A stretch of 64,000 bases of DNA from Candidatus Nomurabacteria bacterium. Lineage in GTDB: Bacteria; Patescibacteriota; Minisyncoccia; Phycocordibacterales; UBA9973. The stretch covers positions 3,907 through 67,906 of the forward strand of contig JADLEY010000009.1 in assembly GCA_020845875.1 (NCBI GenBank), given 5' to 3'. The translations under genes were made by a program, and so were the position numbers. The notes below the pieces were generated by a model. It was not told where the DNA came from. It did no database searches and was given only the letters and a program-made list of their open reading frames with translations. Below, piece by piece: positions 49,796 to 51,124 of the stretch; within the stretch, counting starts at the first letter, position 1; each line of letters starts with the position of its first letter.

Positions 49796-51124
49796 TTGTA
49801 CATGACACAATCAAACACTCTCGCGTCGGTGTCGACGCAGCCCGTATCTCCTAAAAAGGAGAAAGAGTACGGGCAAAAGACGGTGAAGTTCTATGTAACT
49901 CCCAGTCTCCATACCGAGCGCGTGCTCTGGTATATCTCGCACCTGCACAAGCGGGTGTGGAATCATATGCAGGCCATCTGTCAAGGCGACTTCGGTCACA
50001 TTGACACAGTGCTGGATAAGGTAAATCTAAAAGGGCAGGAAGAAATCCAGAAGTTAAAAGACTTCAAAGAAAGTATGCCCCCCATTGAGAAAACCTTTGA
50101 TTATGCTGGTGGAGCATCAACAACAGTATCCATCAAGCCGACCCGTCCGATTTCAGAATTCGGCATGCTCTATGCACTTGGCCCTATTCGCAATGCTGAC
50201 CCAGAGCTTTTGCAACTGCCACTCAACGACTTACAAAAGCCGTGTCGTGTGCTTGCAAAGAGCTGGAAGTCATTCTTTGAGCTCAACAAGCGTGGCGACA
50301 CCGAAGCTCGTCCGCCGAGGATGAAAAACGATTTGTTTTTCTTTACTTTGCAATGGGAAAAGCCGAAAGTAGTAAGATACGGTACCGACACTGTACTTCT
50401 CGTTAACCACAAGATTAACGGAATTGAAGGTATCGGTATTACGTTGCCACTATATGTGAGCAATCTGCTTTCTGAAAAAAGTACACGGTATGTAACCATT
50501 AAGCGCACATTCCCATTTTGGGACAGGCGTTCAAAGTTTGAGGTGAACATTGTGTATGAGACAGAGCGAGTGGAGACGCTTCCTATTGATGCTCATACAA
50601 AGTATGCAGGAGTAGATTTAGGAGCTCGGAGAATCATTCTCATACAGGATGGTATGGTGAAAACGTGGCATCTCGAAAAATGGGATCAATACTTCACCAA
50701 GCAACGCCAAGCTATCGAAGCCCGCATGGCCACCAAGATCAAAGGCTCTCGTGCACATGTTGCACTCTTTGATGCCCGTACCAAGCTTTCTAAAAAGTGG
50801 GCGGATAAGCAAAAGGATGCACAGCGCAAGATTGCCTATGAGATGGTCCAATTTGCCGATGTATTTTTTGTAGGCGAAACTACGATTCGTCTCGGGCTTG
50901 CAAAGTCTGAAAAAGGCTCAAAAGGCCAGCATCGTGCCGTGCAAAACACCGGCAATCTTGCACGCTTTGTCCGATTTTTGAAAGAAAAAGCGATTGAGCG
51001 CGGCAAGCAAGTGATTGAGGTTCCTGATTTTATTTCTGATGGAGACAAAACCATACGGAAAGTGGAGTCAGCGGTGCGTCATCTGGAGTACGGATTGGCA
51101 GAACAAAAGAAGAATGAACGATAA
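49796..51124 (+). CDS. Miniature TnpB/Cas12f-like RuvC nuclease (~440 aa), the candidate CRISPR effector, lacking the zinc-finger module. The ORF-track start is a TTG codon; an ATG lies two codons downstream.
   Basis: RuvC-I 'YAGVDLGARRI'. The inter-motif helix plus RuvC-II 'KGSRAHVALFDARTKLSKKWADKQKDAQRKIAYEMVQFADVFFVGE' is collinear with IS200/605 TnpB. 'LAKS…FVRFLKEKAIERGKQVIEVPD' and then 'SDGDKTIRKVESAVRHLEYGL' correspond to TnpB 'LAKS…VIKID-[CxxC…CxxC]-DRDINAAINIL..GL'. The last 80 aa contain no Cys. The gene is adjacent to cas1 and a CRISPR array. Confidence 0.6.
   Translation: MYMTQSNTLASVSTQPVSPKKEKEYGQKTVKFYVTPSLHTERVLWYISHLHKRVWNHMQAICQGDFGHIDTVLDKVNLKGQEEIQKLKDFKESMPPIEKTFDYAGGASTTVSIKPTRPISEFGMLYALGPIRNADPELLQLPLNDLQKPCRVLAKSWKSFFELNKRGDTEARPPRMKNDLFFFTLQWEKPKVVRYGTDTVLLVNHKINGIEGIGITLPLYVSNLLSEKSTRYVTIKRTFPFWDRRSKFEVNIVYETERVETLPIDAHTKYAGVDLGARRIILIQDGMVKTWHLEKWDQYFTKQRQAIEARMATKIKGSRAHVALFDARTKLSKKWADKQKDAQRKIAYEMVQFADVFFVGETTIRLGLAKSEKGSKGQHRAVQNTGNLARFVRFLKEKAIERGKQVIEVPDFISDGDKTIRKVESAVRHLEYGLAEQKKNER

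Follow-up and report, generated by a model that had tools for sequence, protein, structure and literature searches.

A zinc-finger-less TnpB derivative beside a CRISPR array and a one-domain Cas1 in a Candidatus Nomurabacteria genome

Introduction

TnpB of ISDra2, which works with an omegaRNA (PDB 8h1j, 8exa), is borne on a transposon, carries a CxxC...CxxC zinc finger and a DRD motif at RuvC-III, and uses one guide only, which the transposon end fixes. The Cas12f/Cas14 proteins of subtype V-F are miniature effectors of type V CRISPR systems that depend on trans-activating CRISPR RNA (tracrRNA), keep zinc fingers and an active D-E-D triad, and cleave DNA. Loss of the zinc finger has been described for large branches of TnpB, RIIIr-4 for example (Altae-Tran et al., 2023; PMC10691335). 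TldRs have one, two or three of the catalytic residues mutated, and C-terminal truncations in them ablate the RuvC and zinc-finger domains with retention of specific RNA-guided binding (Wiegand et al.; PMC10705468). A truncation of the TldR kind, which removes the zinc finger and part of RuvC, is also found in dCas12f; one cluster in that study is CRISPR-linked, and upstream of its array lies a guide scaffold that covaries (Hoffmann et al., 2026; PMC13472631; PDB 9n9c). Cas12m and Cas12c are experimental precedents for DNA binding without cutting. Here we describe a TnpB-derived, zinc-finger-less, Cas12-like effector encoded at 49796-51124 (plus strand) of a 64,000-nucleotide stretch from a Candidatus Nomurabacteria bacterium (contig JADLEY010000009.1, positions 3,907 to 67,906), referred to below as the window, together with the CRISPR array, the guide scaffold and the one-domain Cas1 (mini-Cas1) that accompany it.

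The best-supported reading of this effector is a nuclease-impaired, zinc-finger-less derivative of TnpB/Cas12, not a new minimal nuclease. A first-pass annotation, made from the sequence of the window, had proposed a new minimal architecture of an intact guided nuclease on the premise that, as far as is established, no TnpB or Cas12f protein lacks a zinc finger. The premise does not hold for RIIIr-4 (PMC10691335), TldR (PMC10705468) or dCas12f (PMC13472631), and the proposal gives way to evidence for a nuclease-impaired binder; zinc-finger-less and RuvC-truncated relatives have been published already, and a sister family stands in typing libraries, in PADLOC as Cas12_x1. The window effector resembles TldRs in its descent from TnpB, its size (~350-450 aa), the graded loss of D-E-D and the scaffold-plus-guide RNA, as well as in the C-terminal loss of the zinc finger and RuvC-III with retention of the remaining fold and of the surface that binds RNA. 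However, TldRs lack both an array and Cas1; their one guide is fixed and aimed at a promoter of the host (fliC, oppA), and they occur in linkage with those genes or with prophages. In the window system, by contrast, the spacers of the array change, a mini-Cas1 is present and no self-target was detected in 64 kb. It would resemble Cas12m and Cas12c as CRISPR effectors that protect by binding without cutting, and the RuvC triad of Cas12m is likewise degenerate.

Homology, fold and absence of the zinc finger

Residues are numbered throughout on the 442-aa version of the protein, which starts at TTG. As the first-pass annotation recognised, the effector is a homologue of the TnpB/Cas12 superfamily; the homology covers nearly its whole length, and the WED-REC-RuvC fold is retained. 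The match to Pfam OrfB_IS605 is weak (E 0.0012), and that to NCBIfam guided_TnpB, with E 9.3e-22 over positions 65-341 of the 389 in the profile, ends at the start of the zinc finger. A profile of 38 relatives (alignment A4) matches ISDra2 TnpB in the PDB (E 3.5e-17), and the profile search places the effector nearer to typical TnpB than to Cas12f. When aligned by hhalign with ten ordinary zinc-finger-bearing TnpBs, query residues 23-411 match with a probability of 100 and E 2.4e-52, and the alignment stops at VIEVPD411, the counterpart of TnpB VIRIDE, directly before 'YTSQxCxxCG'. An AlphaFold model made from the 38-relative alignment (model 2) has a predicted local distance difference test score of 89.4 and a predicted template modelling score of 0.80; Foldseek gives E 7e-15 against AsCas12f. 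The Cas12f models of PADLOC (PDLC01691) match the effector weakly (E 2.5e-10), and PDLC01225 'Cas12_x1' matches it with 103 bits, ending at profile position 371 of 402. With weak Cas12f matches, a TnpB-like profile and no zinc finger, the effector falls outside subtype V-F; the 'V-F' tag on Cas12_x1 is a library label only.

The loss is precise: the zinc-finger (TNB) insertion of ~30-35 aa that would separate beta-5 from the last RuvC helix is absent. The C-terminus of model 2 consists of a strand (405-410), a loop (411-420) and a helix (421-441), and since this 10-residue loop joins the strand to the last helix, there is no space for a TNB domain. Only two cysteines, C62 and C150, are found in the effector, and the last 80 residues are Cys-free. 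The excision of the module, as originally noticed, is thus upheld by the end points of the profile and hhalign matches, by the modelled loop and by the absence of cysteines. The same annotation had named a sequencing or assembly indel hiding the zinc finger as one finding that would overturn it. A hidden exon or frameshift of this kind was rejected: neither of the other frames of 50800-51200 encodes a zinc-finger-like segment, only 48 nt separate the effector stop codon from cas1, and the architecture is identical in independent assemblies. A different route to zinc-free TnpB is seen in two distant TnpB homologues, P0008 and P0009, in which an insertion of TNB length is followed by the RuvC-III motif 'FNADSVGAFNI' and the insertion holds no zinc-binding cysteines.

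RuvC catalytic positions across the clade

RuvC-I (D274 in GVDLG) and RuvC-II (E361 in FVGET) are both present in the window effector where they had been placed, and the claim of three RuvC motifs holds for these two; it fails for the third. MAFFT alignment of the C-terminal regions lays TnpB 'x-D-R-D-x-N-A-A-x-N-I' on 'T-I420-R421-K422-V-E-S-A-V-R-H', so that the canonical RuvC-III Asp position is occupied by I420 and that of the second Asp of the motif by K422. K422 is invariant in a nine-sequence alignment (A1) and at least 90% conserved in A4. D415 and D417, the residues earlier assigned to RuvC-III, lie within the loop, five and three residues upstream of the canonical position. They are retained only in the two closest homologues (69% identity), are replaced elsewhere by T, K, S, A or R, and are not conserved in homologues of 59-63% identity. 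The position of E361 is Ile in the close homologues P0004 and P0005, and the P0005 locus still contains a 6-repeat array and the scaffold. A complete D-E-D triad was not found in the window effector. E407 on beta-5 was considered as a substitute catalytic Glu, as in a rearrangement of the RIIr-5/RuvX kind, and was rejected because the position varies among E, K, M, R and L.

An exhaustive hidden Markov model (HMM) search returned 739 clusters at 50% identity with E <1e-3, 42 of them with E <1e-30. By alignment of the matches listed to the profile, three groups were drawn. Group A comprises the window effector and its relatives (383-471 aa), with Asp at RuvC-I (at least 90% in A4), Lys at RuvC-II in most members, Glu in a minority and Ile in P0004 and P0005, and a tail without Cys and without DRD. 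Its sister, the large group B (P0042-P0100 and the effector at 229-1404 of locus L030), has Ala at RuvC-I ('VALG'), Asp or Glu at RuvC-II and a Cys-free tail 'GHxNKxxMAxxLRExFL'. Group C consists of ordinary TnpBs with Asp at RuvC-I, Asp at RuvC-II in most (Lys or Ser in two), and CxxC...CxxC followed by DRDxNAAxNI in most.

Triads in the clade thus read D-E-x in the window effector, D-K-x in most of group A and A-D/E-x in group B, and arrays, scaffold and Cas1 are kept throughout. Because the catalytic positions vary while these components persist, the conserved function cannot depend on canonical RuvC cleavage. Binding without RuvC cleavage is most likely because the triad is incomplete in the window effector and degenerate across the clade. 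We therefore consider it fairly probable that the protein is the effector of a compact, TnpB-derived type V CRISPR system of the candidate phyla radiation (CPR; Patescibacteria) and acts as an RNA-guided DNA binder that does not cleave through RuvC.

Several observations weigh against this reading. D274, E361 and the acidic pair D415/D417 before the last helix persist in the window effector and in the two relatives nearest to it, and a D or E two to three positions upstream of the canonical RuvC-III site is common across the clade. The conservation of the RuvC-I Asp in A4 hints at residual chemistry, possibly RNA processing. No spacer target that would point to defence or regulation was found in the window, related loci, IMG/VR or phage records. 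The effector might instead, essentially as the first-pass annotation had it, be an active RNA-guided nuclease without TNB in which D274 and E361 cooperate with a relocated third carboxylate, D417 or D415 or possibly E424. The retained acidic residues would suit such a site, rearranged and presumably active RuvC sites do occur in TnpB, including the zinc-finger-less RIIIr-4 (PMC10691335), and the turnover of the array resembles that of immune systems. However, D415/D417 are not conserved at 59-63% identity, two homologues in that range lack E361 but still possess array and scaffold, RuvC-II is Lys or RuvC-I is Ala in most of the clade, where Cas1 and arrays are kept, and the invariant residue of the former RuvC-III motif is a Lys (K422). 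We regard a rearranged, active nuclease in the subclade of the window effector as an unlikely alternative to the binder.

PDLC01225 'Cas12_x1', listed as a CAS-V-F effector, matches group B proteins (e.g. the L030 effector, P0043 and P0053) end to end with 380-430 bits, and other group A members with ~100 bits, the match stopping at position ~371 of the 402 in the profile. A CRISPR typing library thus covers the zinc-finger-less sister family already, and group A has no dedicated model. As PDLC01225 corresponds to the group B family, typing tools would name an apparently catalytically dead protein a V-F effector. Cas12_x1 resembles the window effector in its zinc-finger-less tail and, as in the one locus examined (L030), in its mini-Cas1, array and scaffold, but differs in the Ala at RuvC-I, where the window subfamily keeps Asp. 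A search of JGI metagenome contigs for the family by peptide patterns gave no match, and a literature search for the effector accession or a V-U number found none. The CPR clade, TnpB-like rather than Cas12f-like, with a one-domain Cas1 and a scaffold fused to the first repeat, appears to be undescribed in the searched literature; it may nevertheless belong to the V-U variants that the 2023 survey left unnamed (PMC10691335).

Array, scaffold and guide RNA

The CRISPR array (51916-52154, minus strand) contains three identical 39-nt repeats (at 51974, 52046 and 52116), transcribed as ACCCAAAACCUCCAUUAAAGAGAUUGGGUGGUUGGGUAC, and three spacers of 31-33 nt, and ends in a terminal half repeat (51916-51941). 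Fused to the first repeat is a scaffold of ~175 nt that resembles tracrRNA and omegaRNA (52155-52332, minus strand; alignments A5, A7 and A8, RNAalifold). It consists of a terminal stem UGAGAAAAAUA/UAUUUUUCUCA, three hairpins and a conserved AGAUGAAG motif, and matches no Rfam family. A region of ~160 nt directly beyond the last repeat is conserved in every locus. The window holds one scaffold and three repeats, with no further copies.

The scaffold and the repeat are joined by a bipartite anti-repeat that includes a pseudoknot and covaries across nine loci (alignment A8), as in a guide of the CRISPR RNA (crRNA)/tracrRNA type. In the first helix, AACCACC of the scaffold pairs with GGUGGUU of the repeat (88.9% of cells paired, compensatory changes in three of seven pairs). 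In the second, the hairpin-loop sequence GUACCC pairs with GGGUAC, the last six bases of the repeat, which abut the spacer; this pseudoknot helix is 100% paired in the nine loci, three of its six pairs being compensatory, with the variants GUGUCC/GGACAC, GUACCU/AGGUAC and GUAACG/CGUUAC. Overall, 87.8% of cells are paired, against 37-53% in slid controls. In 500 shuffles the observed value was reached by none for four of five measures and by three for the fifth.

The scaffold-array transcript has a promoter at 52339-52367 (minus strand; -35 TTGACG, 17 nt, TG-TATCAT). An equivalent promoter (TTGACN-N16/17-TATAMT) was found in all eight loci with upstream sequence (window, L001, L004, L008, L018, L026, L028 and L029), where it sits just outside the conserved scaffold region and points inward. 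The orientation on the minus strand follows from this conserved inward promoter, from the wobble pairs of the nine-locus alignment, which would be A-C mismatches on the other strand, and from the single spacer of L001, which fits only the order scaffold, full repeat, guide, half repeat. At its other end the minus-strand array runs into the half repeat and then into a hairpin CCTCCGAC/GTCGGAGG followed by TTTTC (51870-51899, minus strand) within the 3' end of cas1; this hairpin is likely to be the terminator of the guide-RNA transcript. An equivalent hairpin with a T-run is present in L001, and a weaker stem precedes the T-run in L008. In L026 the effector gene is followed on its own strand by the scaffold and then the array, an order that recalls tnpB and its omegaRNA, and in L030 the effector, cas1, the scaffold and the array all point the same way. 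A plus-strand reading (array followed by a 'tracr'), which began from a terminator-like hairpin at 52280-52298 and G-U pairs in five sequences, was abandoned in view of the conserved promoter, the wobble pairs and the L001 spacer.

The promoter overlaps the first codons of uvrC: within 52333-52369 its -35 box lies inside ATGATTCGTCAAGA (MIRQD), so that the uvrC and guide-RNA units run towards each other. The -10 region is overlapped by TGTGCTAT-G-ATAGCACA, a perfect palindrome resembling an operator. This arrangement hints that uvrC and the guide RNA might be co-regulated.

If the favoured reading is correct, the dedicated minus-strand promoter would give one transcript made up of the ~175-nt scaffold, the repeat-spacer units, the half repeat and the terminator. 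The scaffold would pair with the 13 spacer-abutting nucleotides of each repeat, forming two helices of which one is ordinary and the other a pseudoknot. For the first guide it would act in cis, as an omegaRNA does, and for the remaining guides presumably in trans, in the manner of a tracrRNA. The ribonucleoprotein would then bind complementary DNA and interfere by blocking transcription or replication, as do Cas12m, Cas12c, TldR and dCas12f, and the adjacent one-domain Cas1 would renew the spacers.

Such a transcript would need to be cut into units if the second and third guides are used. Pre-crRNA of Cas12c is processed by its RuvC. In a similar way, the remaining RuvC residues of the window effector might serve RNA processing only, in the maturation of pre-crRNA or scaffold, with DNA bound and left uncut, and the RuvC-I Asp is indeed the one position of the triad that is conserved as the rest decays. 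However, this activity would also be lost wherever RuvC-II is Lys or Ile or RuvC-I is Ala, and host RNases are believed to trim the guide RNAs of TldRs (PMC10705468). A role confined to RNA processing has a low probability.

If binding-only activity is confirmed, the clade would provide some of the smallest programmable DNA binders that occur naturally in linkage with CRISPR (388-460 aa), and its defined natural scaffold-guide RNA would be useful for compact CRISPR interference (CRISPRi) and epigenome tools. The ultra-small CPR genomes also offer a further, independent example of a descendant of TnpB that lacks the zinc finger and RuvC-III and has kept an adaptive array.

Spacers

Eight arrays yielded 24 spacers of 30-33 nt, no two of them alike. 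Locus L031, from a second strain, is 99.4% identical to the window over 4.5 kb and encodes an identical effector; it carries a different spacer beside the terminal half repeat (L031 5729-5796, window 51905-51973), at the cas1-proximal end of the array. This difference implies that the arrays change on short timescales. The spacers match nothing elsewhere in the window, which holds no self-target, or in related loci; the three window spacers share no exact 20-mers with IMG/VR, and blastn of the 24 pooled spacers against 50,697 phage records gave no match.

Mini-Cas1

The mini-Cas1 gene lies at 51173-51904 (plus strand). Its product of 243 aa consists of the C-terminal catalytic domain of Cas1 only, without the N-terminal beta-domain: it matches Pfam Cas_Cas1 (E 9.1e-22) at profile positions 126-253 of 283 and TIGR00287 at positions 116-327 of 327, and its motifs EARYARMYW, GLLH and YDLMEPFR align with solved Cas1 structures. 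The family comprises 19 homologous clusters of 156-267 aa, mostly 230-267. Mini-Cas1 stands beside the zinc-finger-less effector in every locus examined (window, L008, L014 and L026-L031), where Cas2 is mostly lacking. A one-domain Cas1, mostly without Cas2, raises the question of how it dimerises and integrates spacers. It is conceivable, but very unlikely, that the effectors of this spacer-acquiring clade (~390-460 aa) have no working RuvC at all and that mini-Cas1, their only conserved protein partner, acts both as the integrase and as a nuclease brought to RNA-selected targets. If true, this would be a split 'binder plus Cas1' interference, which has been described for no CRISPR type.

In the cas1 gene of L001 (~7690-7700), the Trp codon of the conserved 'PKWCAW' region is TGA, and the gene calls are fragmentary. 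Adaptation may be decaying in that lineage while effector and guide persist.

Genomic context and related loci

The effector belongs to a low-GC island (~48150-52330; GC 0.41 at 48001-50000) between nth and uvrC. Its uninterrupted open reading frame (ORF) encodes 442 aa from TTG or 440 aa from the ATG at 49802, and the protein is identical in the second strain (L031). A sigma-70-type promoter (TTGACA, 16 nt, TATAAT; 12/12 consensus match) at 49750-49777 (plus strand) lies ~25 nt 5' of this ATG, and the NCBI record MCC6198779.1, 'transposase [Candidatus Nomurabacteria bacterium]', is a protein of 440 aa starting at 49802. Given the position of the promoter and the NCBI protein start, the true start is probably this ATG and not TTG. 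An intrinsic-terminator-like hairpin with a T-run (51129-51152, plus strand) lies 3' of the gene, within the gap before cas1.

The zinc-finger-less effectors of the clade measure 388-470 aa. A CRISPR array is found next to the effector in all related loci with enough flank, and mini-Cas1 (~245 aa) in most. As in type V systems, a single RuvC-family effector stands beside an array, and an adaptation gene, mini-Cas1, which is optional in type V, is also present. The name given by NCBI, the membership in the TnpB superfamily and the weak OrfB_IS605 match might suggest an ordinary IS200/IS605 transposon TnpB or its decaying remnant. However, no tnpA and no transposon ends were found at the locus, and the effector is single-copy within the window; the same site (nth, island, uvrC) is occupied in genomes whose effectors are 69% identical, an array is always and mini-Cas1 usually present, the ORF is intact and unchanged in the second strain, and the family spans dozens of 50%-identity clusters. 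An origin as a plain transposon gene is hardly credible in view of these features.

Loci L001-L003 are syntenic Paceibacterota loci (nth, island, uvrC) with effectors 69% identical to that of the window. The L004 effector has Ile at RuvC-II and is accompanied by a 6-repeat array and no cas1. L026, L028 and L029 encode group A effectors with Lys at RuvC-II together with mini-Cas1 and an array, the mini-Cas1-linked effector of L014 likewise has Lys there, and L030 combines a group B effector (RuvC-I Ala) with mini-Cas1 and an array. In L008 and L014 the effector and mini-Cas1 lie between two inverted arrays (4203-4575 and 6763-6940 in L008; 25-282 and 2524-2767 in L014), and in L025 arrays lie on either side of the effector (134-260 and 1868-2061). 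A copy of the leader/terminator segment is found at each array of L008, with the full scaffold at the upstream array. Units in the L025 arrays are unusually short, with repeats of 19 nt and a period of 42-44 nt, and perfect inverted repeats of 30 nt are present at the ends of the contig.

Upstream of the effector, 48813-49334 (plus strand) encodes a winged helix-turn-helix (wHTH) and Cas2-like protein of 173 aa that matches PaaX_M (E 7.5e-13), CRISPR_Cas2 (E 5.8e-5), TIGR01573 cas2 (26.9 bits, cutoff 24.5) and PADLOC Cas2 (E 1.3e-7). It is either a Cas2 fusion or a PaaX-like regulator, and its membership in the system is doubtful. The gene is probably not a core component, since it is confined to the syntenic loci (window, L001-L003 and L031) and does not occur in the other loci of the family.

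The island also contains repeated regulatory modules. A promoter module (TTGACG, 16-17 nt, TATCAT/TATAGT/TATTAT) occurs four times on the minus strand, at 48416-48444, 48723-48751, 49703-49730 and 52339-52367, the fourth copy being the one that drives transcription of scaffold and array. Three copies of a hairpin terminator module lie at 48123-48151, 48453-48485 and 49410-49440. These modules frame small minus-strand units, namely an ORF of 78 aa (48397>48161), a unit of ~235 nt (48720>48486) and an ORF of 77 aa (49685>49452). The two ORFs have no Pfam or PADLOC match, except for a sub-threshold Pfam match of the 78-aa ORF (E 0.0045). The promoter repeats recur in L001, in three copies.

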